Positions 1 to 57,309 of a stretch of 57,309 nucleotides of DNA are shown piece after piece (within the stretch, counting starts at the first letter, position 1; the number at the start of each line of letters is the position of its first letter). The notes beneath the pieces are model-generated. The model did no database searches. It saw only the letters and a program-made list of their open reading frames with translations, and had not been told where the DNA came from. The stretch comes from a virus (Duplodnaviria > Caudoviricetes), in IMG/VR virus record IMGVR_UViG_3300005253_002116, positions 1-57,309 of that record; one strand, given 5' to 3'. The position numbers and the translations under genes were made by a program.

Positions 1-8
1 CATTTTGT

Positions 9-596: not shown

Positions 597-614
597 ATCC
601 TGGAGAAATTAATA

Positions 615-3880: not shown

Positions 3881-3888
3881 GGAATATC

Positions 3889-5261: not shown

Positions 5262-5397
5262 CAAGAGGCTTGTGCCTCCGCAGATGTTGATCTGGACGAA
5301 TTCCTTTCCTGGTTTGACAAGTGATCTCCAGCCCGCAGGCAGCTTAATCTCTGCTTGCCGCCGGAAACCACTATCACATCCTTCGGAGTACACGACA

Positions 5398-5604
5398 ATG
5401 AGCGACAAACAAACAACCGAAACTGCCCCATCACTAGAAACACTGATCCAAGAAGCTCTTCTCCTTGCCATAAAGGCTTCTGATTCATCAACCGATGCCA
5501 AGAGAGTCGCAGAGGAAGCCTCTGCTTTTGCCTACAACGCCTACTGCGCAATCTCGAAGGTCAGCGGAAGAATCAGCGGCGGTGTCCTAAAGAATAAAAA
5601 CTGA
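5398..5604 (+). CDS. small early protein (68 aa)
   Basis: GGAG RBS in repeat module; ORF MSDKQTTE... Confidence 0.7.
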   Translation: MSDKQTTETAPSLETLIQEALLLAIKASDSSTDAKRVAEEASAFAYNAYCAISKVSGRISGGVLKNKN

Positions 5605-5681
5605 TCTCCGTCACCGGGCCTTGCCTTGTAGGGCCCGGATGCGGTTACCACTACCACACCCTTTTAGAGGAAGGAGTAACC

Positions 5682-5843
5682 CTGAAAAACACCCCGAAAA
5701 AAGAAACGACGATCGAACACGAGAATGCAACCAAAAAGGCTAAGCAAGCAAAGGCCGACTTAATCAACGTCCGCACGGACATTGTAGACACCCCAGCTTG
5801 CACGGCTTGGAAAGCGTGGATGAAAAAGAATAACCTGTCGTAA
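5682..5843 (+). CDS. small early protein, CTG start (53 aa)
   Basis: AGGAG upstream of CTG at the usual module spacing; open to TAA at 5841-5843. Confidence 0.45.
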   Translation: MKNTPKKETTIEHENATKKAKQAKADLINVRTDIVDTPACTAWKAWMKKNNLS

Positions 5844-5873
5844 CGTCAACCACCACCACCGGAGAACTAGACT

Positions 5874-5990
5874 ATGAAAAAACCAGTAACTCTTCACGAT
5901 CTTATTAAAATGATAGAGGATGAAACCATTGACGATTATCCTTTTGGAAGCTTTTGGCGATGGATATTTAATTTTCTGGTAGCTGAGTAA
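5874..5990 (+). CDS. small early protein (38 aa) between 35-bp direct repeats
   Basis: GGAG RBS; MKKPVTLHDLIK...FLVAE. Confidence 0.6.
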   Translation: MKKPVTLHDLIKMIEDETIDDYPFGSFWRWIFNFLVAE

Positions 5991-6036
5991 TTCTCACCTG
6001 TCGTAACGTCAACCACCACCACCGGAGAACGTAACT

Positions 6037-6348
6037 ATGCATCCCGAATTAAACTACTCCGCGAGTTGTTCAAAAAAAGCCCTCGAAATTAAGGCAGCTG
6101 AAGCCTGCCGGCAGCGAGCACTTAAAAAAGAACAGCAAGAGCATAATAAACAACTGTCTGAAATTACTATCGTCATTGAAACTACAAACTCTGCTTTTTT
6201 TACTTTCGATGGAAAACCTAATGCCACATCCGAAATATGCCGCATTTTGCATGATTTAACAATGGCAATTAGCAGAGGAACAGTTTTGAATAAAGTGCAA
6301 TTGCGTGACTACAACGGAAACCCAGTTGGACACGTTACATTTCGCTGA
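6037..6348 (+). CDS. hypothetical early protein
   Basis: GGAG RBS; C-terminal pattern NSAF..EICRIL..LRDYNGNPVG recurrent in phage early proteins. Confidence 0.7.
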   Translation: MHPELNYSASCSKKALEIKAAEACRQRALKKEQQEHNKQLSEITIVIETTNSAFFTFDGKPNATSEICRILHDLTMAISRGTVLNKVQLRDYNGNPVGHVTFR

Positions 6349-6387
6349 TCTACCACCACTTCACCGCTACCACAGGAGAGTAAGACC

Positions 6388-6573
6388 ATGACCGATGCTG
6401 AGCTAAACTGCTACGCTCAACAGATCGTAGACGCCGTACAAGACCCAGACATCTACATTAAGGCTAATGTGGCCATCGCCAGAGAACGAGCCGCACGGAA
6501 CCGCGACAGGCTGCTAGGTGGCATTGGGCGACCAGACACAGCCTACCTCCGATCGGTAGGTTGGCCCCGCTGA
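6388..6573 (+). CDS. small early protein
   Basis: AGGAG RBS in a degenerate module. Confidence 0.65.
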   Translation: MTDAELNCYAQQIVDAVQDPDIYIKANVAIARERAARNRDRLLGGIGRPDTAYLRSVGWPR

Positions 6574-6653
6574 TTGATTCCCGTTACCGGGCTATCCGAT
6601 GGAGGGGTAGCCTGGACCCGGTAACCACTCGCTTCACCCTGGAGAACGCGATA

Positions 6654-7254: not shown

Positions 7255-7615
<361 letters not shown>

Positions 7616-15051: not shown

Positions 15052-15546
15052 TAAGCTGCATAAAATACATGGTGAAACTACTATTAAACCGCCGCACATT
15101 AAGCACCTGCTGGAGGGCTTCTCCACTTTATACTTTTCGGTACTTCTGCCGAATGTTCCATAGCAAACTGCATTCCTTCCTTCGTCACGAGGAGTTTTAT
15201 GGGAGTGCTTGGACGCAAAACGCTTAATGTTGACGGGAGATTTCCTTTCTCTGAGCTCCGGAAGCTTCTTTATTTTCCTAATTGTGTCTCTCTTAGTATG
15301 AAGAATTCTTGAAATATGGGAAATAGTAAAACCTTTTTCGAGTAACTCTCTGATCTTCTTCTCTTTACCTATTGAAATCATTTCTCCGCAATCGGGTCTG
15401 CAACGTGTCCGATCCATCATTCCCGAAGTTGCTTTGACTCTATAAACTGTTCTTCGGCATACGCCCGCTCTAATACATATTTCTCTTGGGGTTACCCCTT
15501 CACGTAAAAGCTTCTTAATGAATTTTTCCACTTCAACTGAAATCAT
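15016..15546 (-). CDS. double-HTH DNA-binding protein with C-terminal Cys cluster
   Basis: Two HTH-like segments (GVTPREIC..GVCRRTVYR; GFTISHISR..RDTIRKI); CLMCG..PCILC. Confidence 0.65.
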   Translation of the reverse strand: MISVEVEKFIKKLLREGVTPREICIRAGVCRRTVYRVKATSGMMDRTRCRPDCGEMISIGKEKKIRELLEKGFTISHISRILHTKRDTIRKIKKLPELRERKSPVNIKRFASKHSHKTPRDEGRNAVCYGTFGRSTEKYKVEKPSSRCLMCGGLIVVSPCILCSLDIALQEGSEEL

Positions 15547-15938
15547 GCTAGTCTCTCAATAGTAAGTTCCACTCGCGGGTGTTTCTTATCTATCTCAAAG
15601 ACAGGTGACCCTTCTTGAACATGCTTATGATCGTCATCGGGAATAAGACCAGAGTCCACTATGCCGTCGTATGCTGATTTCAGAGACCCCAACGCATTTC
15701 TTGAATCTCTATGACGATTCTGTGCGAAATAAAAAGTTGATGTTATAATGACTTTGTTCCAAGGTGCGGTATCTATTTGTTCGGCTTCCACTGCTTCCCG
15801 CGTCAAGCGACGGTATTTCTTAATGGCTCCAGCCTTAGCGAATCTACCGCCCATCGAACCAACTGTATGGTTTGGGGACAATAGCCCGCTCGGAAGCGGA
15901 AGAACTATGCGAAGTGATTCAGGTTTAACATTTTCCAT
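15543..15938 (-). CDS. RusA-like Holliday junction resolvase
   Basis: LPLP..LSPN, RDSRNA..LKSAYDGIVDSGLIPDD, PRVELTI. Confidence 0.75.
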   Translation of the reverse strand: MENVKPESLRIVLPLPSGLLSPNHTVGSMGGRFAKAGAIKKYRRLTREAVEAEQIDTAPWNKVIITSTFYFAQNRHRDSRNALGSLKSAYDGIVDSGLIPDDDHKHVQEGSPVFEIDKKHPRVELTIERLA

Positions 15939-20545: not shown

Positions 20546-20850
20546 TCTTGCTCCTCTTTTTCTCTACGTTCTTCGTTCAGAAGGAATTTGTTTGCTTCTA
20601 TTAAAAGTTTTGCAAGCTGATAATCTCTAGCTGAAACAGGCATTGAACAAGGCATTCCCATTGTATGAAAAGTTGCCACCACTTCGTGTCCAAACCCCTC
20701 TTCTTCTGTGAGATCCCTAGCCACCCGGACGCACCCTGCTGGTTCACTACCGGATAAAAGATAAAGATATCCGATATCTTCCCAATCTATTCCGTCCTTC
20801 AGGATTTTAGCATAGTCTTTCAAAAAAGACAATAGTTTCTCGTTTTTCAT
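20542..20850 (-). CDS. hypothetical protein
   Basis: Coupled ORF within the operon. Confidence 0.6.
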   Translation of the reverse strand: MKNEKLLSFLKDYAKILKDGIDWEDIGYLYLLSGSEPAGCVRVARDLTEEEGFGHEVVATFHTMGMPCSMPVSARDYQLAKLLIEANKFLLNEERREKEEQE

Positions 20851-22199
20851 TCTTTTCCCTTTCGTATTTCAGCCCTGCCACTGCACCAAACAATGGCAAC
20901 TCGTCCACCTGGAAGTTCCGCTACTTTATAATCAGGGAAACTTGAACTGTTAATCATTTCAAGTGACATTAGGTCTTCATTGAAAGCCGCCCTCCAGGCT
21001 TCAGAAAGATTTTTTTCCCGACCTTCCCATACAGTCTCGCAATCTTCCTTTGGATAGCAAGAGAGGATATCCTCTCCACATTGTGTGATTTCAGCGTCGA
21101 AGAGTTCTTTCGTTTTTGCTACGATACCCCCAGTTAAATCCTTCACACGGAGCTTCATTAACTCTTCGCTGCTGTAGCAATTAAATCCCTCACCATGCTC
21201 CCAGGTTGCACCATCTTCGTTTTTGAAGACAATGTATTCTCCTCTTTCGTCATTCCGGAAGTCGTCTGGTGATGCAAAGGAAAACAAGCCAGGGAGACAG
21301 AGATGATGTTCACAAGGCTCTAAGTCTTTGACAGGAACTCCAAGCTTTTCACAATGCCAATTAGCACCTTCTGAATGAATATCAGGCGTAGCATGACAAC
21401 ACTGCCGGCATGAGAGGGTCTTAATCGGCAAGGCCGGCTCAGATGACTCAGGGCCCCAGCAGATTGATTGAGCATCGCACCACTTGCATTCGTAATAATC
21501 ACGTCTGCTGAAGGCACGCTTGGGTGGCTCGTTAGAGGTAATGATTCTCTCGGCTTTAGACATTAGAGTCTCACAGGCTCCACTATCATACTTGATTCGC
21601 TCGGAATAAAGATCATCTGTATCTTTGTTTTCGGCGAGATACAATGCACGTGTCATTTTGGTTAAGTGCATGTAAATTTGCATCTGAGAGAAGTGTTGAG
21701 GTTTTGACTTCTGAACACCTTCCTTTTCAAGTTTTTTGAATGACTTAGCTTTGTGTGTCTTGAACTCCAGCACGTGCCAAGTTTTGGGAGCTTCGGGGAT
21801 GCCAAGAGCACAACCGTCCATGTGTCCCGAGAAATGTCCGCCAAGAGCCGAGACTTCAAACTGCTTTTCTATTCTAATGAGTCCCCTCGGATAACCTCCA
21901 GAGTAATCCTCAGGTGATGGTACAAAATCGTGTACTTCGCAACCTATTGATCGAAGGTTTGCTGCCATTCGCCCCTCTTCTCGATCCCCTGTCTCAAAGA
22001 GGCGGTACATGCGACCACTGAAGTCCGGAGAACAACATTGTCGGAAACAGTACCAGAGATAGCGTTCGCACGGATGTCCTATGATCGAAGCTCCGAGGTA
22101 GCCGCGAGTGGGCTCTGCATCACCAGCTTTCTTATACTCCTCGAAAATCTGCTTAACAGTTAGAGATTCTTTCGGGATGTACTTAGAGATATCACTCAC
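20847..22199 (-). CDS. PD-(D/E)XK exonuclease (Cas4/YqaJ-like)
   Basis: YLGASIIGHPCER, GHMDG, LEFKT, QMQIYM, Cys clusters. Confidence 0.85.
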   Translation of the reverse strand: MSDISKYIPKESLTVKQIFEEYKKAGDAEPTRGYLGASIIGHPCERYLWYCFRQCCSPDFSGRMYRLFETGDREEGRMAANLRSIGCEVHDFVPSPEDYSGGYPRGLIRIEKQFEVSALGGHFSGHMDGCALGIPEAPKTWHVLEFKTHKAKSFKKLEKEGVQKSKPQHFSQMQIYMHLTKMTRALYLAENKDTDDLYSERIKYDSGACETLMSKAERIITSNEPPKRAFSRRDYYECKWCDAQSICWGPESSEPALPIKTLSCRQCCHATPDIHSEGANWHCEKLGVPVKDLEPCEHHLCLPGLFSFASPDDFRNDERGEYIVFKNEDGATWEHGEGFNCYSSEELMKLRVKDLTGGIVAKTKELFDAEITQCGEDILSCYPKEDCETVWEGREKNLSEAWRAAFNEDLMSLEMINSSSFPDYKVAELPGGRVAIVWCSGRAEIRKGKE

Positions 22200-22587
22200 T
22201 CTTTGGCTCCTGCAAAGATACGGCGATCTTCTTTGGTGTCACGGTGACATAAGAAGATATTGCGGAAAATACTTCTACATTCATTTCTCTATACCATTCG
22301 TATCCTTTAACATCTAAAGTGTGTTTAATCTCGGTTTTAATTGGAGCTGGAAAACCAATTTGTTCAAAAGCGGTACGCATTCCGTCTATGTTTGTCCTGT
22401 AGTTGAACCCCCGCTTTACCGTGACTTTCCAACCATCTTCCAATTCAATAGTCTTTTGTCCTGAATCTTTCGTTGGAATAAGATTTGCTATTTGCTTCTC
22501 GATTTTAATACGTGCCTCTCTGGCAATACTTTCAGAAATCTTAAATTCCAAAAGTTCCCTAACAAGCATTCCTAAAACTGTACTCAT
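22192..22587 (-). CDS. conserved phage replication-module protein
   Basis: Typical position between SSB and exonuclease. Confidence 0.55.
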   Translation of the reverse strand: MSTVLGMLVRELLEFKISESIAREARIKIEKQIANLIPTKDSGQKTIELEDGWKVTVKRGFNYRTNIDGMRTAFEQIGFPAPIKTEIKHTLDVKGYEWYREMNVEVFSAISSYVTVTPKKIAVSLQEPKSE

Positions 22588-22856
22588 TTAGTTTTCCTTT
22601 TCCAATAAAGCATCTGGCATACCCATACCACGTTAATAATGGCTATGGGTATGCAGCAGATGAAAGAGAACGGAGAATTCATTTGGAGGTAAAAGTACAG
22701 TCCGTACAGACCCCAAGCTGCCATGAATGCAGAAGGGACCATGCTTACTCCTTTAAGTTGCTTGTCCTGATGCAACTTAACCACATTCAAGATCAAGACA
22801 AGACCGGCCCCAAGCTCAAAGAAACCGTTGATGAGATCAGGGGTCACTTCTGCCAA
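22584..22856 (-). CDS. PQ-loop/SemiSWEET-like three-TM membrane protein
   Basis: Three hydrophobic helices; K..KGVS....WG pattern. Confidence 0.6.
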   Translation of the reverse strand: MAEVTPDLINGFFELGAGLVLILNVVKLHQDKQLKGVSMVPSAFMAAWGLYGLYFYLQMNSPFSFICCIPIAIINVVWVCQMLYWKRKTK

Positions 22857-23353
22857 GGCAGTCTAGGGGTTGTAGCCCCCGGAGCAACCATGAAGGTCTG
22901 AGGGCCAGAGGGAGCTGCGGGACCCGGAGTGAGTACGGCAGGATCAATGGTAGTAGGCTGACAAGTACCAGGAGCAGAATACGTCCTCACTTCGTTCTGA
23001 CCTTCCTTGACCGTAACATGTGCGATGACGATTTGATTGAGAAGTTGATCTGTATCAGTAATGACAAAACCAACTGCATCGCGTAAGGCAGCCATGCACC
23101 GCATAGCTATTTCCTTACAAATCTGACTGGGATTGTCGATATTGATTCGATCAATGATCTTTTTGCCTTTGAATTGTCCGTCGAGAATCAACTCTTCAAG
23201 GTAAATAAAATGACCATTTTTCTTCTTGTTTTGTTGAACTTCTACCTTTTCAATTCTAACAGGATACTTACCAGTCGGATAAACCGGAAATTCTGTTTGG
23301 GCTTTCGTGGAAGCAAGTTCTTCTGGACTAAAAAATTTTGCAAGGTCGCTCAT
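22844..23353 (-). CDS. DUF669-like single-stranded DNA-binding protein
   Basis: P.GKY.V.I, ILDGQFKGKKI.DRINI, NEVRTY; directly after Sak4. Confidence 0.75.
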   Translation of the reverse strand: MSDLAKFFSPEELASTKAQTEFPVYPTGKYPVRIEKVEVQQNKKKNGHFIYLEELILDGQFKGKKIIDRINIDNPSQICKEIAMRCMAALRDAVGFVITDTDQLLNQIVIAHVTVKEGQNEVRTYSAPGTCQPTTIDPAVLTPGPAAPSGPQTFMVAPGATTPRLPWQK

Positions 23354-23385
23354 TGAAAAACTCCGTGGGTCTAAGGGGTAATTTA

Positions 23386-24198
23386 CTACGAAACTTGTGC
23401 TACAGCTGCCATCCAAGCCCCGAAGGGATTGTCCTTTGGCATTGGTAACTCATAGGGAAGTTGTCCGAACGGACCTCGACCACCTCCGGGGTGAGCGGGT
23501 CGGTTTTTCGTGTAGAGAAATCGCTGATCTCCAGCTATATCATCAGCACGTCCTATTTCTTTCTTGTAACCAACATCTTCTTTTGTTACAGCAGTTTTTG
23601 TGTTGCAAAAGAGAATTGCATCAGCCCAGCGATAGAAATGAGCGGCGGCGTGCTTGTCGAGATCAAATTCGTATGAATCATAGCTCCCTGCAATTGGATC
23701 GTCAAAACGCTTAATTCTAACATGACCAATAATAATAGAGGATATATTCCTCTCTTCTCTAAAGAGATCAAGAGTATCAGTTATTGACTGCCAGGTATTC
23801 AAAGCGATATTTTGTCCTTTATTATATCCTTTTAGCACTTTATCAATATGCTTAACTCCATGATCTTTACATACTTCTTCAAAAACAAGAGGCTGTAAAG
23901 CACTAGCAGAATCAATTACAATTGTTTGATAACTATGTGTTTCCTCCCAAAGTGTAGAGAAACACGATCGTAGATCATCCATTGTATTGCACGCCGGGAA
24001 TTGCGGAACAGTTTGACCAGATTTGAATTTCGGAAGGAGGACATTGTCGGCACCCTTTTCACTTTTAATCGGACAAAAAATCGGCTCATTGGAATCGGCT
24101 GCAAAGGTTGTCTTGCCAATTTTCTCCACGCCGAGCACGAGAATTCGTGGTGCCTTAAGACAAGTTTCTGAACTAATTGATGCTAGATCGAAAGCCAT
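23386..24198 (-). CDS. Sak4-like AAA ATPase (single-strand annealing)
   Basis: GVEKIGKTTFA, TIVIDS, IIGH, WADAILF. Confidence 0.85.
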   Translation of the reverse strand: MAFDLASISSETCLKAPRILVLGVEKIGKTTFAADSNEPIFCPIKSEKGADNVLLPKFKSGQTVPQFPACNTMDDLRSCFSTLWEETHSYQTIVIDSASALQPLVFEEVCKDHGVKHIDKVLKGYNKGQNIALNTWQSITDTLDLFREERNISSIIIGHVRIKRFDDPIAGSYDSYEFDLDKHAAAHFYRWADAILFCNTKTAVTKEDVGYKKEIGRADDIAGDQRFLYTKNRPAHPGGGRGPFGQLPYELPMPKDNPFGAWMAAVAQVS

Positions 24199-27190: not shown

Positions 27191-27474
27191 TAGTCTGGTA
27201 CCGGAGGATCAATTACAAGTGTCGGAAGAACCTTTTCGTCCAAGGCTTTGACTGCTTCTTGAAATTCATCATAAGAGCAGCAATCACACCATGTTCGGAG
27301 TGCGTAGAATGTTTCAAAACGCTTCGTCGGTGTCATGCTCTTGCTCTTTTTAATAGTGGGCCAAAGTTTAGCGACGAAGCTAGTGATCTTACTGCGTTGG
27401 CTCCAGATAAAAAGGAGAGCCCCAACTGCGAGTGCTACAAGCGGAAGATTTTCGGTGAGTGTAGATAGATTCAT
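27190..27474 (-). CDS. single-TM membrane protein
   Basis: TM LPLVALAVGALLFIW; GGAG RBS. Confidence 0.65.
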   Translation of the reverse strand: MNLSTLTENLPLVALAVGALLFIWSQRSKITSFVAKLWPTIKKSKSMTPTKRFETFYALRTWCDCCSYDEFQEAVKALDEKVLPTLVIDPPVPD

Positions 27475-27484
27475 GGATTATCTC

Positions 27485-28019
27485 CTAACGGGGTAAAAGA
27501 ATATTTCTCAAGAAAAGTTCCTTCATTTTTGAATCACGTTTTATTCTATCTACAAGATCCATTAAGTCAGAAACTTGAAGTTTCAAGGATTTTATTTCCT
27601 TGGTTATATGCTTTTCCATGTCATCAATTGATATGTTATCAATTGAAACCCTAGTTCCTCTGGGCCACCCTCCAATAAGTTCTGCCAGGCGAACGATTCT
27701 TTTGTTTTTCATTCTACTCTTTCTCCGTTTCAGGGTCTAAGTGCGGAAAGTTGACAATGGGAGTTCCGCGGAAAGTTACTTCTTCCCCCTCTATGATCCT
27801 GCGGAGAACTTCATCGAAAATCCGCCCGACCAATGGACGAATTGCAGAACGCAAGATGGGATCAATGATAGCGTCTGGTCCCGGAAGATTAATAGGCTGG
27901 AAATACTCATCAAACAATTCTTCGCAGCGAAGAATTAAATATTCTCGCTTGCTGTAGTCTGTATCGATAAAACTTTCAATCTCTGCTGTCACAATCTTCA
28001 GAAAATCTGCTACTGTCAT
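27485..28019 (-). CDS. two hypothetical proteins (27714-28019, 27485-27712)
   Basis: RBS-preceded ORFs. Confidence 0.55.
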
Positions 28020-28078
28020 TTTGTCACCTTTCTATGTTTTTAATGTATCGGAACCGCCCTTGCGGCCATGCAACTTGC

Positions 28079-28106
28079 ATTCTACCATGCCCCTGTTGAA
28101 AAACAA
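28079..28106 (-). promoter_or_regulatory. sigma70-type promoter for the lysis/replication block
   Basis: TTGTTT-16 nt-TAGAAT with extended TG. Confidence 0.5.
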
Positions 28107-28120
28107 GCCCTATTTTGGAA

Positions 28121-31100
28121 TTATCTCGAAGGAAGCTTCCTCTCTCCCTTCTCAACGCGTTTGTTATATTCCGCACGCACCTGTCTAGCCTTGGCAAAGT
28201 CTTCTCTGTCGATGAAATTCCTCATTCTCCTCAAAGCTGCTGAATAGCTATCGCGATACGTCGTGACGCTGATTCCGCCTAACTCTGAGGCTGCCACCGC
28301 CCCAATAATTCCCCAGTCTTCATCGGAAGCGTCTTCAATTCCTTGAATTATTAGTGGAGTTATGACGTGTCTGAGTGTTGTTAGTCTCGGTATTTCTTCA
28401 CCAACAATTGTTTTTCCCCTGTAGATTTCAACCGGAAAGGTTACAGCAGGGGAAAATTTGTAAGTAAGGAAACGAAGAAAAGCTTCAATTGGGTCAATGT
28501 CAGATCCTTCTTCTGTAAACTGTTTCACACCCCCTATTATTATTCTGGCAACAAGTCGCAATGGCGAAAGGGAACCACCGAAAATCTTCCATCTTGTATT
28601 GCCAATTCGTATTGTCGCCCAATCTGCACTTTCAGTATCCCACCATTCAACCTCTGCACCAGCAAGCTGAGCCAGAAAAAGTATCAATCCTCCAGTTCCA
28701 GATACGCGAACCATATCAGCCGCAATTTGATTACGAACAGTTGGTGTCTTCCAATACTTTGCTAACGCCAGCGGAGTTTGAACACGGCTAATTGCAAATC
28801 TAGGAGAAAAGAAAGTCTCTCCAAGTGCCTCGGAATACTTAGAGTCTATTACGCCTAGCCCAGTTGATTTGTTAATATAATCTGCTATCGCTATCATTTC
28901 GGCCTTCGTGGCTTCTGGATTTTTTTCTATCCAATAATCAAAAGCACTTGTACGCATTAAATTGCCAATGGCTACACTTTGCCTTGAAGATGCAGACATT
29001 ATGACACCAAGAAGAGTTTGCCTACCGCCTATTTTCGGGAGGAATTTAGGAAACTTCAGATTCTCAATAAAATGACCTCGGAAAACTTCGGAAGTGTTTT
29101 GATCTGCCTGTGAACCGGGGTCCATAATTACCAATCCCGCGATCTCATGAAGCTCTGCATTCTCGGAATTCCTAATTCCATTGATGATTTGTTCAGAACT
29201 ATACTTGGTGAATAATGTCTTCATTGATTTGGCAATGATTTTTATAGTACCAACTGTCCTCCGTGGATTTGCAAGACCAGAGAAAACAGGCCAAAGGTTT
29301 TGCCTTAACGTAAAAGAGACATCTGCCGTAGCCGCAATTGCCTTCATTTCAGCGGTAACTGCCTTAATTTTCCTCTTAGTATCCCACGGCCGAGCATCCT
29401 CAATAATTTGACGCATCTTTGCCCGTTGCTTTGAGAGTTCGATCTGGGCCTTTTCGAGACTCTGAGAAATTAGCCTCTTGGCCTTCGGCAGTTTACTCCG
29501 ATATTCCCCAGTGAGCAGTTGGTTTTCTACATCAGCCAACTCTTCTCTGACTCTCAATTCGCTACGAAGGTCTCTGGCCTTCTGGTGATATTCTTGTAGT
29601 TTTTCAGAAACTTCTCTTGGCTTCTTTTTGATGTCTTTTTTGCCAGTATCAAGTAGATCCTGGAGGCGGTTAATTGTATCTATTGCACGTTCTTTCTTGG
29701 CAACTTCTAATCCCGGTCTGAGAATTTCTTTCCTGAGTTCAGTATAGAGCTTCTGGAGGTCTTTGATTTCTTTGCTGGTTGGGGTACGCTTTTTAGCTTC
29801 AGGCAGAATACCTTTTTGGGCATTATCTATTTTAACGAGAAGACTGGAAATTGTCTTCAAATGGCGAACATTTTTCTTTGCATCATTCTCAGCAATCTTC
29901 TTACGTTTCGGATCTTGCGTAATAATGGCCCGAGCAACATCTATATCAGTTAAATCGAAATCAGGAAAATCTTTCCGAAGAGATTCCACAACTTCAACAA
30001 ACTCGCCAATACCCTCTTTTGCATAAGTAAGACCAACGCGACCAATCAAGAAGAACATTTCAGGTGAGAAGCTCCCGCTTTCTTCCCTGAGAAAGCCAAT
30101 GTTATTCTCCCCGGCCTCTTGAAGTTTTCTGATTTTCTCAAAAAGACCGGCCCTTTCTATTCTGGCCTTTTCTTTGATTGTTTTGCCAGCACCAGAAGTC
30201 CTTCTTTTCTCGGCAGCTAGAATTTTTCTGGCCTGGGCGAGATCCATCCTTTTATTCCGAATTTCATCCTTCTGAAATTCCTCTTGGACATCTTTTTCAA
30301 AGCCGGTATGTTTCTTCGTTTCGTTGGCAACTGTTTCGCGGTCGTCAGAATCGAGTTCTTCGTTCTTTGCGTTCCGCAAATCAGCAGTGAATCCACTTAC
30401 TTCAAATTTATTCCTGTTGATAGCAAAGCGGCGAATAGCCATTGACTGAGCAGCCGCCCTTCCACCAAAATTGTCAGCAATCAGAATTTGCTCAATTTCT
30501 TTTACTCTACGCAATTCTCGTATTCTTGCCCTATTATAAGCCTTCGTGTTACCTGCATTTTCTGCTACATTTTGCTGTTCCTGAAATTCTTTGATTTCTA
30601 TTTCACGTTCATATTTTGCAACAGCAAAGGTTATGTGGTCATAATCACTTATCAATCGTCCTTCTTTTACAACTTCGTCCGCCAATTCCATGACGTCTTT
30701 GGTCGCATTTTCGCGGAGAACTGCTCCAGTAACCTCATTCCAGTGTCTGGGATTTTTATCCTTTATTGGAGATAAGTCCCTCTCTTGTAGCCATTTCTCA
30801 CCAACCGCGTTGTTGAGATCGAGGTTTTGAGCCTGAGTCTCTATCTGAGGTGCCTCTTGGACTGCCCCAGGAGCCTCAGGAGCGGCTTCAGGCTGTTGTG
30901 GGACTTCTGGGGCCTGGGGCTGTTCGGCAGGCTCCTGGACTGGCGCAGGAGACTCAGGAGCCTGCGGAGCTTGCTGTTGAATTTTCTCCTTCTCTTGATC
31001 CTCAAGTTTTTGACCCTCTGACTCATTTACATCAAGAAATGCAGCACGTTCTTCTTGCGTTTTTCTATCTTTAGGAAGATTCCATCTTTTCCACATTCCA

Positions 31101-32491
31101 TCTGTAATTTCGTCTCCTTCTCGAATCTCCGCTTGTTCATCGAGATTCATTTCATTGACGATTTCTTTTGCGAGCTTTAAGCGATCTTCATCTTTATATT
31201 TTCTTGGAAAACCAATCTTCTCCCACTGTTTAGCTGTACCTCTGGAGGGAATTTTGTTTTCCCTGGCATGTTTACGCATATCCCCCTCTGCGCTATAATC
31301 TTTGTCAATTTTAATGCCCTTCGAGATAGGACCAGCACCGCCAATAATAGCAACCGGAAGTGCGGAAGATTTTATATCATCAACAAAAGATTGCCAAATG
31401 TTCTTCGGATCTCGGGGGTCCATGTTGTCGCTTAGAACAGATGCCGCTTGCTTGACAGCTTCATCCCATGCTCCCTGGGCACCTTCCTCTAAGGTTTCAC
31501 CGACTACATTAAATAGATATTCAGAAGCACCCTTGAGGGTTGCTTTTGTTTTAGGTAATTTTGCAAGAGCCGAAGCACCTTTCTTAATAGTAGGACCGGC
31601 TAGCTTTTGGGCCCACTCAATGACTGCTAAGCGTGCAGCCTTTCCGAGCGGTCCAAGTGCCTTCTTGGTCACTCCTGTGGGATCTCGGACACCTAACACT
31701 TCAATAGCTGCTGTTCCTATTCCAGCGGCTCCCCCGGCAAGTGCAGCCGGAAGAGGATCAAGACCGAGCAATTGCATTTCTTCGACTGATCTTGGAGATG
31801 TACGCATTGCCTCGTAGGCAAACAATGCTGGACCGCCACCAAGTCCTGCCGTAGCTACTCCAAATGCAACGCCGGGGGTCATCCTTAGTGCAGTAGAAAT
31901 TCCCTTTGCAAGCGTGCTGGAATCCTTTGACATAAAGGGATTTTCGGAAAGTTTCGCTGCTTCCAGAGCTCGCATAAAGCGAACATCCTCTAAGTTTTTT
32001 CTTTTACCACCCAATGCCTCTATTCCACCAAAAATTCTTCCCGGACCAACAAAACTACGACCCAAGTCAGTGGCACCTTCTAAAAGGGAACCAGTACCCT
32101 CAAGGGTTTTTCCAGCAAACCATTGCCAGTAATTGGCGTCTTTTTGCTGTTGCCGACGATACAGTTCCTGTTTCTTGGAAACATCTTGTACTTGCTCAGC
32201 CAAAAAAGCACGTTCTTCCGTATCAGTAATATCCTCGGCGGCTTTTTCGGCAAATCTCCTGCGATATTCAGTGAATGTGTGAGTAAGACCCCGGACATAT
32301 TGTTTGAAGATTTTGTCCTTGCGTTCCTTAGAGATCAACTCCTTCTGCTGCTCAACGGGAGCAAAGAATTCTTGACCTGGAAATGTTTGGGACGATTCAA
32401 CCGGAGCAAAGAATTCTTGACCAGGGAACGCAGTCGCAACTGGCGGAGACTGCTCTTCGGACATTTGTAGAAATGGATCTAGTTCAGGCAT
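28121..32491 (-). CDS. large internal virion/DNA-ejection protein
   Basis: 1456 aa, helical, Gly/Ala hydrophobic stretches; last of three ORFs after the tail genes, as in podoviruses. Confidence 0.65.
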   Translation of the reverse strand: MPELDPFLQMSEEQSPPVATAFPGQEFFAPVESSQTFPGQEFFAPVEQQKELISKERKDKIFKQYVRGLTHTFTEYRRRFAEKAAEDITDTEERAFLAEQVQDVSKKQELYRRQQQKDANYWQWFAGKTLEGTGSLLEGATDLGRSFVGPGRIFGGIEALGGKRKNLEDVRFMRALEAAKLSENPFMSKDSSTLAKGISTALRMTPGVAFGVATAGLGGGPALFAYEAMRTSPRSVEEMQLLGLDPLPAALAGGAAGIGTAAIEVLGVRDPTGVTKKALGPLGKAARLAVIEWAQKLAGPTIKKGASALAKLPKTKATLKGASEYLFNVVGETLEEGAQGAWDEAVKQAASVLSDNMDPRDPKNIWQSFVDDIKSSALPVAIIGGAGPISKGIKIDKDYSAEGDMRKHARENKIPSRGTAKQWEKIGFPRKYKDEDRLKLAKEIVNEMNLDEQAEIREGDEITDGMWKRWNLPKDRKTQEERAAFLDVNESEGQKLEDQEKEKIQQQAPQAPESPAPVQEPAEQPQAPEVPQQPEAAPEAPGAVQEAPQIETQAQNLDLNNAVGEKWLQERDLSPIKDKNPRHWNEVTGAVLRENATKDVMELADEVVKEGRLISDYDHITFAVAKYEREIEIKEFQEQQNVAENAGNTKAYNRARIRELRRVKEIEQILIADNFGGRAAAQSMAIRRFAINRNKFEVSGFTADLRNAKNEELDSDDRETVANETKKHTGFEKDVQEEFQKDEIRNKRMDLAQARKILAAEKRRTSGAGKTIKEKARIERAGLFEKIRKLQEAGENNIGFLREESGSFSPEMFFLIGRVGLTYAKEGIGEFVEVVESLRKDFPDFDLTDIDVARAIITQDPKRKKIAENDAKKNVRHLKTISSLLVKIDNAQKGILPEAKKRTPTSKEIKDLQKLYTELRKEILRPGLEVAKKERAIDTINRLQDLLDTGKKDIKKKPREVSEKLQEYHQKARDLRSELRVREELADVENQLLTGEYRSKLPKAKRLISQSLEKAQIELSKQRAKMRQIIEDARPWDTKRKIKAVTAEMKAIAATADVSFTLRQNLWPVFSGLANPRRTVGTIKIIAKSMKTLFTKYSSEQIINGIRNSENAELHEIAGLVIMDPGSQADQNTSEVFRGHFIENLKFPKFLPKIGGRQTLLGVIMSASSRQSVAIGNLMRTSAFDYWIEKNPEATKAEMIAIADYINKSTGLGVIDSKYSEALGETFFSPRFAISRVQTPLALAKYWKTPTVRNQIAADMVRVSGTGGLILFLAQLAGAEVEWWDTESADWATIRIGNTRWKIFGGSLSPLRLVARIIIGGVKQFTEEGSDIDPIEAFLRFLTYKFSPAVTFPVEIYRGKTIVGEEIPRLTTLRHVITPLIIQGIEDASDEDWGIIGAVAASELGGISVTTYRDSYSAALRRMRNFIDREDFAKARQVRAEYNKRVEKGERKLPSR

Positions 32492-51005: not shown

Positions 51006-52823
51006 CTACCAACCTTCACTTCTAGGGAGTTGCAAATTTGATTCTCTTGGTTTCTTGTTCTTCGCTTTACGCCATGCCAGAGACCCTATCGGAATTTCAG
51101 GTTTACTCTGCTCTGGTATATATGTTCTCTCTGTCATGCCTCGCAACGCGAGTGCATCGGCAATCACGCGATCTCCGTGGTTATGCTTTGCACCAGAAGG
51201 ATCTTCTTTGTTATTTTCGCGAGAGTGTTCCGGAAGACCTTGAATATTATAGACATATTCCAAACACTCTTCAAGGGCAATCTTTGACGTGTTGATAATC
51301 TTAGATCCCTGTACAGCTTCTCGATAACTACCGATCAGCAGACCCTTAGTTTCTTTTGCTGAGTGCCATCCGGGTTTAAGAGTTTGTTTCTTGCTAATTG
51401 CCTCCTCCATTTTACGGAAGTAGATATTTCCGTACCTGCATTCTTGTACCCTCGAAGAGAATTGCAATCCTGGTCCATTACTCTCCCAAATAAGATAGGC
51501 ATTATGCAGCCATCTTGCGATAGCAACCATTTGTTTTGCAAATTCCTCTGGCAGTATATACGGATTAGCGTATTCAAGTACCTTTTCGTAAGTCGTAATG
51601 TCATAACCGCAACCTGTTGAATTTGAGTTGCCTGTACCAGCCGACACATCACAACCAAGCACATACTTACGTTCTCGTGGTAGTATACCCTCTCTGTCAG
51701 GGGCAACCCACAGCTTCAAGTGACCCTTCTCTCGTTCTTGGAATCCAACTGGTTCCGAGGTTAAAGAATCATATTCTAAATCTCCTATTAAGAGATAATT
51801 ACGTGCATTTTTACGAATTGACTCTTGAACAAGATCCTGTATGAAGTATTGATGACCGCTACCAAGGTAGTCGATCATTACCTCTTGGTAGATTTCTTGA
51901 TCCGTTGCAGCACGCTCGTCTTCAATATCTAGCCACGGAGAACGCGGGTCCCACTTGCCATCTAGAACCGGCTCGTATCCTTTTGGGTATCCCTTTTTAT
52001 CAAGTATTTCGAGATTCCCATTACTATCGGCACGGTATAAACCCTTGATTTTTTCAGGGTGTTCGGTCCAGAAAAACCTGAGTTTTTTGATATTTGTTTC
52101 TTTAACTGTGAAATAGGCATTATTAATTCCCTGAGGCGTTGAATTAAAAAGTCGACTGCGTGTAGCGTGACTTGTTGAGGATAACACTTTGTGGCCTTCT
52201 GTAACTGCTGCAAACTCGTCAAGCAAAATTGCAGTACGTCTATCTCCTCTTGCAATGTCTCCTGTTGTTGCTTCACCATCAATAACACTCTTAGTAACAG
52301 GATTTTTGAGATGGTATTTTAGGCGATGTTCTTTTTTAATAAATCCCGCTGGCATAAGCCAAGCCGGCAAATTATCATGCAAAAAGTCTATTTTCCAAAA
52401 AAGGGATTTTGGGTTATCAGAAGCATCTACATACCTAGAATCCCTTGATACTATTAAAAAAGACATAAGCTTCCGAAAATGCCACAACCACTCAAATGCA
52501 ACTAAATTTAACCAACTCGCTCCCATATCGCGAGTTTTTTCAATCAGAAGATCGTGATTACCTATTGCCTTAAAGATTTCAAGCAATCCGTCACGCTGAA
52601 AATCATATAAGATAAAAGGAATCCTTTTATTTCCTTCAAGCCTAGGATCAAAAGTGTAAACAAAACCATTTATATAAAAAATAGGATCTTTTGCACAGGC
52701 ACCTTGTATCACTTTTATAAAAGACGGATCTTCTAAAACTCGCTGAAAGACCTTTTTACGCCATTTGAGATTTTCCTTGATTTCCTTCGGAACATAACGC
52801 TCAAATGGAGTCCTAACTTTCAT
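51006..52823 (-). CDS. terL: terminase large subunit
   Basis: EKTRDMGASW, ARGDR, LLDEFA, NSTPQG, LGCDVSAG, HGDRVIADAL. Confidence 0.9.
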   Translation of the reverse strand: MKVRTPFERYVPKEIKENLKWRKKVFQRVLEDPSFIKVIQGACAKDPIFYINGFVYTFDPRLEGNKRIPFILYDFQRDGLLEIFKAIGNHDLLIEKTRDMGASWLNLVAFEWLWHFRKLMSFLIVSRDSRYVDASDNPKSLFWKIDFLHDNLPAWLMPAGFIKKEHRLKYHLKNPVTKSVIDGEATTGDIARGDRRTAILLDEFAAVTEGHKVLSSTSHATRSRLFNSTPQGINNAYFTVKETNIKKLRFFWTEHPEKIKGLYRADSNGNLEILDKKGYPKGYEPVLDGKWDPRSPWLDIEDERAATDQEIYQEVMIDYLGSGHQYFIQDLVQESIRKNARNYLLIGDLEYDSLTSEPVGFQEREKGHLKLWVAPDREGILPRERKYVLGCDVSAGTGNSNSTGCGYDITTYEKVLEYANPYILPEEFAKQMVAIARWLHNAYLIWESNGPGLQFSSRVQECRYGNIYFRKMEEAISKKQTLKPGWHSAKETKGLLIGSYREAVQGSKIINTSKIALEECLEYVYNIQGLPEHSRENNKEDPSGAKHNHGDRVIADALALRGMTERTYIPEQSKPEIPIGSLAWRKAKNKKPRESNLQLPRSEGW

Positions 52824-53431
52824 CCGCAATCATGTCCACCACGAGGACGAACTGCCTTTTTCTCAGGGGTTACATCTGTTACAACGAAAGGACATTCACA
52901 GGAATGAAAAACAGATGTCATATACGATTCTACTAAATCCCTAGTAACGTAATGCTCTCCGTAGCTCTCCGGCCAATCAATCTCAAACAGGCGTTTCATT
53001 GTCTTCGTCCTTAGGGGTTATATCTGTTATGTTAATTTCAAGGAAAATATCACCTAAAACACTCCGAAGTTTTTTTTGGTCAATATAATTCTCTCCATAG
53101 TAATCGTCCCATTCAATCTCAAACAGTTTCTTCATTTTTCTCGTCCTTGGGAGTTACATCTACAATACCTAATGAAACATCCCTGCCGATATGTTCCTTG
53201 GTTCTAATGCACGTACGAAGATTATCTACATTCATCCACATTGGACCACTATCATCATCCCATTCAATCTCAAACAAGCGTTTCATTGTCTTCGTCCTTG
53301 GGGGTTACATCTAGAACAGTTACTTCTTCTCTACAGATCATCTTCTCAAGGAAATCCCAGAAAATTTCATCAGTTATATAATCTTTTCCGAGACTATCAG
53401 GCCAACTAATTTCAAAACATTTTGCTACCAT
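52820..53431 (-). CDS. four tandem overlapping paralogous microproteins (53270-53431, 53119-53286, 52983-53135, 52820-52999)
   Basis: FEI.W near the start and D(V/I)TP near the end of all four; ~50-bp junction repeated in DNA. Confidence 0.8.
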
Positions 53432-53913: not shown

Positions 53914-54611
53914 TTCTCAGTCTCCTTGGAAAATACTATTGCGGCAGGTAGTGCCTCTTCGCTGTCCAATAGAGAATCATCAGGTTCTTCATCTTCCTCT
54001 GCGAGCATCTTGAGTTGCTCGTCAATATCCATAAGAGCCATTTTGGTTTGCTTTTTAAGTTCCTTTTCAGCAGAGTCATCTAAGACCTTATTGAGAACCT
54101 GAGTAAACTTCCCCATAAAGTCCTTAGGTTGGCTTGTGGCTTGGATGTACAGAAAGTACGCTTGATCATTTGGGCAAGAACGTGGCTCTTCTCCGGTACG
54201 GAGCTTCAAGCCGGCTGATTGGATAGCCCAAAGGAGGTTATCCTTTAATGAGAGCTTCTGTCCTTCATTTAGAATAGAATCCCCAGATAAAAGAGGAGTT
54301 TCCGCAGATTGAGCTTGTTTCCGGGTAGGAATCGGGTTGACTAAGCCAATAGGCGGTATAGGGCCGGCTTTTGACATCTTGTTTGGTGAAGTCCGCCCCA
54401 TTCCCGGTTTTGGGATTAGATTGGCTTTCTGAAGGTAATTTCTTACTGTCTGCGGGCAGACCTTGTATTTCAGTCCAAGTTTTGATTGTGTCTCTCCTCC
54501 CTTATATTCTTCCCTTAGTTCCGAAATCTGTTTATCGGTGAGTACATTTCTTCCGCTGTAACCTGCTTCGAGTCGTTCCTCTTCGGTCATAACACTAATC
54601 ATTTGGTTCAT
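53910..54611 (-). CDS. putative terminase small subunit (N-terminal HTH)
   Basis: LTDKQISELRE..GETQSKLG.KY.V..TVRNY HTH; acidic C-terminus; upstream of terL. Confidence 0.55.
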   Translation of the reverse strand: MNQMISVMTEEERLEAGYSGRNVLTDKQISELREEYKGGETQSKLGLKYKVCPQTVRNYLQKANLIPKPGMGRTSPNKMSKAGPIPPIGLVNPIPTRKQAQSAETPLLSGDSILNEGQKLSLKDNLLWAIQSAGLKLRTGEEPRSCPNDQAYFLYIQATSQPKDFMGKFTQVLNKVLDDSAEKELKKQTKMALMDIDEQLKMLAEEDEEPDDSLLDSEEALPAAIVFSKETEK

Positions 54612-55178
54612 TAAGACATATCCTCACTTCCTTCTATACAATATAGAACATAATTGAGACCTTCAGAAAATAAGACTCCTCTTTTTTCATCTTTACATTT
54701 GCACGTTTCAACACCACATACGCAAAAGAAAGTGTTTATTCTTTTACATTTTGGACAACCATGTATTTCATTTTTTCTAACTGATCCGTTCCAGAGCCAA
54801 TTTTGTTCCTTTGGTAAGAAGGGATTCTTCGCCTTGAGTCTCTCTTCTACTGTACCCTTCCAACCACATTCAACACAAGTGAGAATATTATCTGGGTTCA
54901 TGTTTTCTGCACCAAAGAAGAAGTTCCCCATTTTCTAATTGTTTTCCACCGATTTCAGCATTTTCGCATCCTTTTTTGTCACATTTCCAATAGAACTGAT
55001 TTGTTGATTTACATTCCGGGCAACCGTAAACGAGATGTTTGTCGGGGTGCATAAATTCCACAGGCATAAAGGGATTGTCAGCGGTGAGTTGTTCGCTTGA
55101 TTTCCCTTCCCATCCACATACTATACAGTTCCAATTTCGGGGGTTATCTACAAAGGTTTGGGTCCATGCCTGGATCAT
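54611..55178 (-). CDS. two tandem paralogous multi-Cys zinc-finger proteins (54888-55178, 54611-54901)
   Basis: CxxCGW.G....L.A.NPF...GCP.CK..N.F...C....C in both. Confidence 0.75.
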
Positions 55179-55184
55179 TCCCTC

Positions 55185-55213
55185 ATTATATCATGGATCT
55201 CTGAAATTCCTAG
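55185..55213 (-). promoter_or_regulatory. extended -10 promoter for the leftward operon, probably leaderless
   Basis: TGATATAAT with ATG 55178 six nt downstream. Confidence 0.6.
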
Positions 55214-55524
55214 TATTTTTTTCATTTTTTTAATTAGGCATGGATGGGGGCTACCGCCCCCCTAACTCCCCACAACGCCGGGGGGTTTGGTTCGGCCTGA
55301 GCTTATTGTGTAACAGTCTGTTACAATGTGTAACGCTGCCGGCTCACCCTTGTGAGGGGGTGGGCGTGAGGTGGGCAGCCCCACGACCCACCATTACCCA
55401 CGCTTATGGCAGTATTAGGTTTACTCATAGACACGTGCAGGTAACACTGCACAACGACCTTACGGGTTACAATGATCAGTGTACGCACTATGCGGATACT
55501 TCGAGATTATCCATGGATAGCCAT

Positions 55525-55552
55525 TTGACTTCCACCGCAGGTGTGCTATCGT
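55525..55552 (+). promoter_or_regulatory. promoter at the head of the early-gene array
   Basis: TTGACT-16 nt-TATCGT with extended TG. Confidence 0.5.
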
Positions 55553-55602
55553 TGTCGTAGAGGGCAGACCACTACCACTACATCCTTTCGGAGGCACTCG
55601 TC

Positions 55603-57309
55603 ATGAAGTTTAGACAGGTAGTCACATTTACGCTGGATACCGAAATTGACCCGAAAACCTATCAGGGGCAATCTGCGGAAGAGATTCTCCAAATCTACAA
55701 AAGGAACATAGGAAATGTCCACAGTTTGGTTGTGCAACACCCGCATAGCAGAATTAAGACAACCATCGAAGTAATCTCCAAGTGATCCCCACCCACCGGC
55801 TCCAGCCTCCCTTGGAGCCGCGAGGCGGTTACCACCACTACACTCTTGGAGGATGCGACAATGAACGTTGAAAGAGCTATCTCTGACCTGAAACACAACC
55901 TAACGTACCTGAAAAGCATCAGGGATTGCATCCAATGGGTTCCTGATACAGGGCACGTAGGAATTCACGAATGGATAGAAAGCCTGCCACAACCGCAGAT
56001 CATCTTCGAGCCTGTCAACGCAGACAATGAGTGATCACTGGCTCACGGGCAGCCTGACCTCTGCCCGTCGCCGGTTACCACACCACTACACCACTAGAGA
56101 CGAGACAATGACCAACCTTGACATTCTACTGGGCCACTCCCCTTCCTTAGAGCAATTGCAAGACAGTTCCGACGCCTTAGAAAATAGGATTATTGTCCTA
56201 GAAGAGGAACGAATTCTAATAAGGGTTCGATTGATTGACGCCCGCCGGGAGCGGTTGGATATTCAACGGGCTATAGTGGCTCACCCATGTTACCAGCGGT
56301 AACCGTCACCGGGCCGTCCAAGGGAGGTCGGCCCGTCGACGGTTACCACTACCACACCACTGGAGATGCGACCATGACCTTAAACGAAGCACAGAAAGCG
56401 TACGAGCAAGCTATCCAAGAGGTCGAGACAACCCAAGCTAAACTCCACTCCGCCCGAACGAACCTTCTTCAGACCTCGCCGCAAAACGTGCACAGGGTCT
56501 CCAGTTTCCGATCCATTGCGATTCTGTATGGATTGAATTACGAGCAAGCTGTTCTAAAGGTCGAGACAGCCAAAGCTAACCTCCACTCCGCCCGAACGAA
56601 CCTTCTCGCAATCGAAAAGGCAGATTATGAGGCAACTAAGGCGGAATGTACCCGCCGAAAGGCCGCTAAGTGATCTCCACCCACCGGCTCCAACCTCCCT
56701 TGGAGCCGCGAGGCGGTTACCACTATCACACCCTTTGGAGTACACGACAATGACCACAGCAGACGCAGTAGACAGGGCCGTCATTCGACACGAGAAGGCT
56801 TGCCAAGTCTTTGAAAATGCCCAAGAGAAGGAACATGCGACGTACGAAGAATTGAAAAACGCAATTGAGTACGAGACGAAAGAAAGACTCGACATCTACA
56901 GACCGCACGGTTGTCTGTGATCTCTGGCCAACGGGCCACGTCCCAGCGTGGCCCGCTGCCGGAAACCACTACTACACTCTTGGAGGCGATGCGATGACCG
57001 ACGAACAATTGAGAATAATTGCGAACCCTGACAGCGAGAGATTGACAGATGAAGAACTAAAGAGCATGGCGTGGATACTTAATGAGCTAGCAAAGGATAA
57101 GGCCCCTGAGTGATCTCCACCCACCGGCTCCAGCCTCCCTTGGAGCCGCGAGGCGGAAACCACTATCACACCCTTTGGAGTACACGACAATGAGTACACA
57201 ATACATCGGCGGATCTGCCCTATCAAAGGGGGAAAAGACCAAAGAAACTCTACCCAAAGCGATAAAGGCCTCCGGGAAAACAACCAAGGCCATGTGGGTC
57301 GTTGAGAAA
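55603..57309 (+). CDS. early microgenes: 55603-55785, 55861-56034, 56108-56302, 56374-56673, 56750-56920, 56994-57113, 57190->57309
   Basis: Each starts after the GGAG/GAG RBS of a repeat module and ends at the stop codon that opens the next module. Confidence 0.75.
55783..57192 (+). repeat. early-gene intergenic modules, right part of array (55783, 56032, 56300, 56671, 56918, 57111)
   Basis: Copies at 56671 and 57111 nearly identical and 55783 close; the others keep the hairpin and ACCAC tract with changed stem sequence. Confidence 0.9.

Follow-up and report, generated by a model that had tools for sequence, protein, structure and literature searches.

A stop-anchored hairpin and leader repeated between small early genes of an uncultured tailed phage

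The module described here is found at 13 consecutive gene junctions in the early region of a tailed virus from sediment (Duplodnaviria; Caudoviricetes), IMG/VR record IMGVR_UViG_3300005253_002116. The window analysed is the whole record of 57,309 bases, which is classed as linear and estimated to be complete. A full module comprises, in order, the stop codon of one small gene, a hairpin, the core CGGWWACCAC, a G-poor leader, GGAG, and the ATG of the next gene. Nine copies are full and four are short. Pairing in the upper part of the hairpin is under selection, the same architecture is present in four diverged phages, and the genes that lie between shared modules differ among them. Because the same module surrounds different genes in related phages, it probably standardises expression and marks the sites at which genes are swapped.

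Most of the uncharacterised genes of phages lie in early regions, among them those for host takeover and counter-defence. It is poorly understood how such regions stay expressible while their content turns over rapidly, and one compact element appears to solve both problems here. Its architecture is conserved across a diverged lineage of uncultured phages, and natural variants exchange genes at module borders.

Layout of the module and selection on its hairpin

Most genes of the record are on the minus strand, including those for terminase (51006-52829), a primase-polymerase (15925-18207) and a helicase; the majority of structural genes match neither a Pfam nor a PHROG family. The early block is on the plus strand, where it begins at 55603, continues until the record ends, and resumes from position 1 to about 12000. 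A 420-nucleotide (nt) noncoding region precedes it and holds the one sigma-70-like promoter candidate. The modules occupy 55560-57309 and 5322-6654. An earlier note on this DNA, made from the letters alone, had counted about 13 of them, and all 13 were located. In the nine full copies, 74-83 nt separate the first base of the stop codon from the first base of the start codon (55783-55861, 56032-56108, 56300-56374, 56671-56750, 56918-56994, 57111-57190, 5322-5398, 5602-5682, and 6571-6654). The short copies have an ACCAC-rich leader, GGAG and ATG with no hairpin, and precede the genes that start at 55603, 5874, 6037 and 6388. Past 6654 the junctions are ordinary, with a 2-nt gap and a 4-nt overlap. 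The stop context is less uniform than had been supposed: TGATCTCC, given as usual, is exact in only four of the nine full copies, and TGATC is found in seven.

The modules are confined to the early array and occur nowhere else in the 57.3-kb record. CGGWWACCAC has nine exact matches, all on the plus strand and all within the array, and 23 matches when up to one mismatch is allowed, versus 7.1 +/- 2.5 in shuffled sequences. A longer core motif, GGWWACCACYAYYACAC, has seven matches versus 0.08 expected, a count reached by none of 100 shuffles. When a covariance model built from the modules was used to search all 57,309 bases, the nine full copies scored 63-73 bits; the remaining matches are five weaker ones on the reverse strand, which overlie the palindromic modules, and the short copies at 5827-5876 and 5986-6039.

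No module comes near any Rfam gathering score (the best is VA RNA, at 24 bits versus 62), the DNA of 55200-57309 has no match among 50,697 phage records, and the exact module-core pattern occurs at no locus across IMG/VR. The pattern of GGAG, spacer and ATG occurs there as 20 single matches in unrelated phages, with no modules at those sites, and a scan of IMG/VR with an alignment of the protein of gene 6 found no relative. The open reading frames (ORFs) between modules are mostly unrelated to one another, as the earlier note had it: none of 22 microgenes matches Pfam, and a PHROG family of unknown function (phrog_9027) is assigned to one of the 13 array ORFs. The host-takeover or anti-defence roles that the note proposed for them are putative, as the ORFs are without annotated relatives.

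From the stop codon through ACCAC, the module forms one irregular three-tier helix of about 23-25 base pairs (bp) with arms of 23-25 nt. A basal stem is followed by an internal loop of 2x2 or 3x3, an upper stem of 8-11 bp and a loop of 3-9 nt. In the basal stem, a box just after the stop codon, (A)GTGATCTCC ((A)GUGAUCUCC as RNA), pairs with the core box GGWWACCAC(T). This anatomy derives from single-sequence folds and from ungapped comparison of arm against arm; arms of 23-25 nt match without gaps in 9 of 13 hairpins from the window and from L025, a related phage described below. The GC-rich inner stem recognised in the earlier note thus stands, within a helix that extends further than was described and in which the post-stop box pairs with the CGGWWACCAC box. 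Minimum-free-energy (MFE) folds of nine modules give z scores of -1.9 to -4.8 in eight of them. Module D (modules are lettered A to M, Table 1) has a wholly different 5' arm that retains pairing with the conserved 3' box.

The upper stems change in sequence and keep pairing, as had been stated for the inner stems quoted in the earlier note. When pairs are indexed from the common CGGG/CCCG base, 10 distinct upper stems contain 87 cells, of which 83 pair; sliding the partner by one leaves 40 of 87 paired. Positions 5-8 each show three Watson-Crick pair types. Modules B, E and G, which have one stem among them, are left out of this count, the anchor pattern having missed them. In a MAFFT alignment of 12 modules, 74.7% of cells pair, versus 68.0 +/- 1.5% in shuffles, none of which reach it in 500; slid controls reach at most 50.4%. 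Ten pairs are altered on both sides, which 8 of 500 shuffles match, and the covariation score is reached by 2 of 500. This alignment misaligns some upper stems, and RNAalifold predicts no structure from it because the variable stems are misaligned, so single-sequence folds were instead projected onto the alignment columns. Duplex energies average -18.1 kcal/mol for own arms and -12.6 kcal/mol for cross arms, with the own arm the best partner in only 5 of 11 cases. This last test is weak because the upper stems are not fully independent, most having a CCGGG/CCCGG core in common.

The leaders are 12-22 nt long and nearly free of G (3% in 238 nt, versus 23% in the array coding sequence), and in 11 of the 13 copies GGAG is followed by an 8-9-nt spacer before the start codon. 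A scan of 54900-57309 revealed no sigma-70 hexamer pair and no T-tailed terminator within the modules, where the hairpins themselves are present. The only promoter-like site on the array strand that is in the right place is the one before gene 1; the first array gene of L025 is likewise preceded, at the corresponding position, by a promoter-like site, TTGACT-17-TAGACT. A phage RNA polymerase, as an N4-type hairpin-promoter would suggest, was not found by Pfam or PHROGs in any large ORF.

Several minor features of the hairpins were also seen. The loops of B, E and G (near 55809, 56698 and 57137) read CCUCCC, which resembles an anti-Shine-Dalgarno sequence, and two loops of L025 are likewise C-rich (ACUCCCC and CACUCCCCC). 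A function for such loops was considered and dropped, complementarity to the downstream Shine-Dalgarno (SD) sequence being inconsistent across modules. In short modules at 6346-6387 of the window and at about 700-750 of L025 (minus strand), nothing separates the 5' box from the ACCAC box. To judge from these sequences, the joints would fit a slippage event at an inverted repeat that cleanly deleted a hairpin.

Gene content around the modules in relatives and population variants

A terminase search yielded 9 loci in IMG/VR and 218 in metagenome contigs, and the best 80 of the 218 were kept. The covariance model finds the module in three of these 89 loci (796,881 bases). L025, whose terminase is 66% identical to that of the window, has four full copies and three reduced ones, all on the early strand; L065 (54%) and L091 (52%, from a partial match) have one full copy each. 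All three have the same three-tier fold with other upper-stem sequences, and the outer stem is GACG/CGUC in L091 versus GUG/CAC in the window and L025. Early genes of L030, L052 and L056 have a G-poor, CA-rich leader, an SD sequence and a CACGAC-like spacer, without a hairpin. The complete relative G001 (50,965 bases, with terminal repeats) has its own start-associated word, AAGGGAGAARGYYATG, at ten early starts. These clade-wide leaders, the hairpins of L025, L065 and L091, and the word in G001 suggest that the lineage as a whole has a standard start region and that the stop-anchored hairpin belongs to a sub-lineage.

The early block of G001 (L016) lies at about 27400-31800 on the minus strand. 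Its word often falls within the 3' end of an overlapping gene that comes before, and CACTCACAACRYG precedes several copies. At the end of this block is an ORF that resembles a serine recombinase, judged from its N-terminal sequence.

Four of 24 early ORFs of the window have homologues in L025, where they occur in another order between homologous modules. The sixth gene of the window corresponds to the first array gene of L025, and the homologue of the gene at 56750 follows that of the gene at 6037, an order reversed in the window. The earlier note had proposed to look for relatives with the same modules and different ORF content or order. L025 is such a relative, and the population variants described below add to it; since the shared module surrounds different genes in both, the refutation put forward in that note, part of which is identical gene content between modules, does not apply.

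Kinships among modules of the window are incongruent between halves. The hairpins of B and E are 95% identical and their leaders 72%, B and F have leaders that are 86% identical and hairpins that are 66% identical, and the leader of H is 93% identical to those of E and G with hairpins at 61-70%. Such a pattern is expected from exchange within the CGGWWACCAC core.

Four public runs labelled marine sediment metagenome, from two studies (X1 to X4), among which there is no RNA run, contain parts of the region as contigs. When mapped to 54000-57309, these contigs break at modules, and the longest piece internal to the array is 527 nt; 57219-57309 is uncovered in all four runs. In an X4 contig, position 56986 is joined directly to 57183 with one shared letter, so that the gene at 56994 and the hairpin of module G are lost and GGAGG stands seven bases upstream of the ATG of the gene at 57190. 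The contig diverges after 23 matching bases and has a D-type hairpin 261 nt (87 codons) past that ATG. The hairpin of module C (56030-56081) recurs in X2, X3 and X4 with an upstream sequence and a leader that are foreign to the window; two 13-letter probes from the foreign flanks have only chance-level matches elsewhere in the window. In an X2 contig, the gene at 56108 stands behind another hairpin. Back-joints of the kind expected from circular single-gene molecules are absent from the contigs, which are unable to reveal such circles.

The breakpoints fall at three places in the module, namely where the 5' box begins, where ACCAC ends, and within the SD sequence and spacer. This fits homology-driven exchange and not a site-specific cut of the integron kind. 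The proposal that the module is a standardised unit of expression and recombination is supported in so far as different genes surround the same module, and not in its comparison with integron cutting. Other loose ends at 57154/57194 (X2) and 56358 (X1) were dismissed as cross-mapping because they match modules H and I of the window itself. A loose end before 56303 and the joints 56977 to 57154 and 55476 to 55512 (all X1) are ambiguous and were left unused.

The phage encodes a Cas4-like exonuclease, a single-stranded DNA-binding protein (SSB) and a Sak4-like annealase (Table 1), which are candidates for carrying out exchange between short repeats. PHROG and Pfam scans of ORFs of at least 90 amino acids (aa) found no tyrosine or serine recombinase and no integrase; a match to an invertase family at 15016-15546 covers its helix-turn-helix only. 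This agrees with the earlier note, which saw no integrase in the window.

Possible roles of the module

We favour, with roughly even confidence, the reading in which the modules are intercistronic RNA punctuation of one early transcript and also homology patches for recombination. The 13 microgenes would be read as one early transcript from the single host-type promoter at 55525-55552. Each junction hairpin would be a processing site for a double-strand-specific RNase of the RNase III type, a hairpin that protects the 3' end and insulates, or both. The G-free leader, GGAG, 8-9-nt spacer and ATG would provide an unstructured and uniform translation start, so each small gene might be expressed in an equal context irrespective of its neighbours. 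Processing or 3'-end protection would make each microgene an insulated message with uniform ends. The modules are direct repeats of the same 40-100 nt and so may also serve as patches for homologous or annealing-based recombination, and exchange at these repeats by the annealase, SSB and exonuclease would allow genes to be added, removed and reordered. If the RNA function is true, the module would be a natural insulator part, a processing hairpin with a standard leader, like those that synthetic biologists build by hand, and would also provide a simple rule by which accessory-gene cassettes could be recognised in phages from metagenomes.

The junctions of the T7 early region, a polycistronic unit of small genes transcribed by host polymerase, contain RNase III sites that are hairpins of about two turns with an internal loop, which host RNase III cleaves to leave a 3' hairpin. 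To judge by predicted structure, the module resembles these sites in its early unit of small genes, its hairpin of about two turns with an internal loop, its related base sequence and its lack of a terminator tail. In contrast to the T7 sites, the hairpin here is anchored to the stop codon, a G-free leader built to one plan always comes after it, and it also marks recombination breakpoints. The earlier note had named T7 RNase III sites, the promoter early stem-loop (PeSL) elements of T4-type phages and mycobacteriophage start-associated sequences (SAS) as analogues, and this is the right neighbourhood. By analogy, the module might be viewed as a blend of T7 sites (structure and position), PeSLs (shuffling), and SAS with its extended form, ESAS (start region and upstream inverted repeat).

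A bolder version is tentative and rather unlikely. In it, the module would be a portable 'gene socket' shared across the lineage, in which a dedicated phage or host factor that reads the basal boxes cuts the transcript into one-gene messages and, as DNA, the module channels annealing exchange. If so, phages would have a recombinase-free counterpart of the integron for their accessory genes, kept at 52-66% terminase identity.

Several observations weigh against RNA punctuation. Module M folds no better than shuffles (z -0.58), and four junctions function without a hairpin. The population variants rest on short de Bruijn metagenome contigs, and some apparent ones are cross-mapping of modules H and I. 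The basal boxes are conserved in sequence, beyond pairing, and therefore hint at a sequence-specific reader. Finally, 11 of the 13 hairpins in the window and L025 fold more stably on the reverse strand, as do those of L065 and L091, because several mismatches of the sense strand are A.C (15, versus 9 G.U). This asymmetry is unlike what pure selection on a sense RNA predicts.

Conservation of the boxes across phages and the more stable reverse strand speak for an element that acts as DNA or on the antisense strand, perhaps as the binding site of a phage DNA-binding protein or as a single-stranded DNA hairpin for replication or recombination. A.C mismatches point the same way, as three of the four phages (the window, L025 and L091) have one at a basal position that is conserved. 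However, every copy has one orientation and one register to the stop and start codons, the nine G.U pairs in independent upper stems would become C.A if the reverse strand were the one that folds, the sense strand gives the better fold in modules I and M, and the cores GGTTACC, GGAAACC and GGCAACC form no conserved palindrome; no candidate regulator came to light. An explanation at the level of DNA is unlikely.

DNA binding has also been argued for the ESAS of Cluster K mycobacteriophages (Pope et al. 2011, PMC3203893). As set out in the portions of that paper devoted to these repeats, the SAS is an asymmetric conserved sequence that includes the ribosome binding site, precedes the ATG of non-structural genes of various families and has one orientation, and about half of the copies have an upstream imperfect inverted repeat of 17 bp, the ESAS (Pope et al. 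2011, PMC3203893). The arms of the ESAS are conserved in sequence, and departures from the consensus do not support pairing, according to the same portions (Pope et al. 2011, PMC3203893). Compared with SAS and ESAS as so described, the module has in common a shared start region, one orientation, and an upstream inverted repeat. It differs from the ESAS described there in that its arms are 23-25 nt, its upper stems covary, and its helix spans the stop codon. The 13-bp SAS consensus, GGGATAGGAGCCC, which lies 3-7 bp before the start, has no matches here with up to two mismatches.

It is equally improbable that the module is chiefly a translational device, in which the hairpin couples the stop codon to the next leader across 75 nt, or in which ACCAC, GGAG and ACACGACAAUG make up an operator for a repressor like RegA of T4 that shuts early genes off. 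In each of the four phages the hairpin base starts either at the stop codon or inside it, and the spacer between the SD sequence and ATG, (T)ACACGACA, is conserved in the window and L025 beyond the need for SD pairing, with CACGAC recurring in L030 and L065. The MFE fold of module E also pairs UCUCC with UGGAG, as the earlier note had suggested for the CTCCA after the stop codon and the TGGAG of the ribosome binding site. However, ensemble folding gives that pairing no support. In the nine window modules, computed SD accessibility barely shifts when the 5' box is removed (for example, from 0.32 to 0.37 and from 0.40 to 0.37), with changes of about 0.2 only in B and M, and masking of the SD sequence by the post-stop CUCC was rejected on this basis. 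The four junctions without a hairpin also count against coupling, and no repressor gene came to light.

In T4-type phages, the PeSL contains a sigma-70 promoter and a terminating stem-loop, and its copies recombine, with insertions, deletions and replacements between related phages, and so shuffle genes in a hyperplastic region of ORFan genes, as recounted in the relevant parts of Arbiol et al. (2010, PMC2839356). The module shares with that description a repeated intergenic cassette from the stop codon to the SD sequence and start, with the stem-loop between them, a location among ORFan genes, and recombination between copies in relatives. Yet it would be very surprising if each module were likewise an early promoter with a terminator or attenuator stem-loop, since the scan given above found neither hexamer pair nor T-rich tail in any module of 54900-57309 and placed the sole well-positioned promoter-like site before gene 1. 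Unlike the PeSL as recounted, the modules apparently lie inside one transcript.

Integron cassettes are promoterless genes behind one promoter, each with an attC hairpin whose core is GTTRRRY, next to a gene for an integrase that is a tyrosine recombinase. The array is similar in its promoterless small ORFs behind one promoter, the imperfect hairpin with conserved ends and variable centre that follows each, and its variable gene content; the analogy is functional only, and attC-like sites for site-specific cassettes are the least credible explanation, since the scans of ORFs of at least 90 aa found no integrase, the core of all nine full modules is GTTACCA, GAAACCA or GTAACCA and not GTTRRRY, and crossovers fall at several positions.

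Features of the array and neighbouring regions

Table 1. Coordinates of the junction modules, the genes between them and associated features in the 57,309-base window
Feature	Coordinates	Strand	Remarks
Sigma-70-like promoter candidate	55525..55552	+	TTGACT, 16 nt, TG-extended TATCGT (TGnTATCGT); sole credible one upstream of array
Short module A	55560..55602	+	ACCAC-rich G-free leader, GGAG, 9-nt spacer, no hairpin; leader of first gene
Microgene 1, 60 aa, ORFan	55603..55785	+	No Pfam or PHROG family
Full module B	55783..55860	+	Hairpin type 1, TT core; 65.9 bits by covariance model
Microgene 2, 57 aa, ORFan	55861..56034	+	No Pfam or PHROG family
Full module C	56032..56107	+	Hairpin 56030-56081 in contigs of three runs from two studies, other flanks
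Microgene 3, 64 aa	56108..56302	+	Behind different hairpin in run X2 (loose end at 56085)
Full module D	56300..56373	+	5' box replaced by GGTAACCGTC, pairing perfectly with GACGGTTACC; fold z -4.84
Microgene 4, 99 aa	56374..56673	+	Internal 68-nt direct repeat
Full module E	56671..56749	+	Hairpin type 1, TT core; leader identical to that of module G
Microgene 5, 56 aa	56750..56920	+	Two homologues in L025
Full module F	56918..56993	+	Found by fold and covariance model
Microgene 6, 39 aa	56994..57113	+	Homologue is first gene of L025 array; missing from X4 contig (joint 56986 to 57183)
Full module G	57111..57189	+	Hairpin type 1, AA core
Microgene 7	57190..57309	+	40 codons, then record ends
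Full module H	5322..5397	+	Own hairpin; leader 93% identical to E and G
Microgene 8, 68 aa	5398..5604	+	ORF
Full module I	5602..5681	+	Downstream start uncertain: CTG 5682 or ATG 5716
Microgene 9, up to 53 aa	5682..5843	+	ORF
Short module J	5841..5873	+	ACCACCACCACC GGAG, no hairpin; 10.7 bits by covariance model
Microgene 10, 38 aa	5874..5990	+	ORF
Short module K	5988..6036	+	82% identical to J over 61 nt; 14.5 bits
Microgene 11, 103 aa	6037..6348	+	Homologue in L025; phrog_9027, function unassigned
Short module L	6346..6387	+	TGATCT joined straight to ACCACCAC, as though hairpin deleted
Microgene 12, 61 aa	6388..6573	+	ORF
Full module M	6571..6653	+	Last copy; GGTAACCAC core; fold z -0.58
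Microgene 13, 63 aa	6654..6845	+	Ordinary junctions begin after this gene
Phage recombination genes	20847..24198	-	Cas4-domain exonuclease 20847-22199 (E 3e-94), SSB 22844-23416 (6e-22), Sak4-like annealing protein 23386-24198 (3e-25)

The two parts of the array are separated by an AT-rich block (1-5225, 36% GC) that encodes a 5'-truncated deoxynucleoside monophosphate kinase, PrkA split by a LAGLIDADG intein, and a DUF444/YeaH protein. The first ~58 residues of SpoVR are also present, fused in frame to a GC-richer tail of 30 residues that ends at module H. The proteins of this block have homologues in no fetched relative, and a scan of IMG/VR with the DUF444 protein found no close relative. 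Because homologues are absent from the relatives, the record without the block is 52.1 kb and so matches the relatives' 49.4-52.8 kb, and the reading frame is broken between 57309 and position 1, the block may be an insertion into the variable array that is specific to this strain, or else the end of a chimeric contig.

The direct repeat within microgene 4 (56401-56606) has 90% identity and represents a duplicated peptide segment. Upstream of the array, a perfect 8-1-8 palindrome, TGTAACAG T CTGTTACA (55309-55325), lies between two copies of TGTGTAAC (55307-55334). Some 200 nt separate it from the early promoter-like site further downstream, and it may function as an operator or as part of an origin. 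A (CT)n tract is located in a noncoding gap of the early block (7356-7460), and several relatives (L012/G001, L037 and L073) likewise have (CT)n runs in their early regions.

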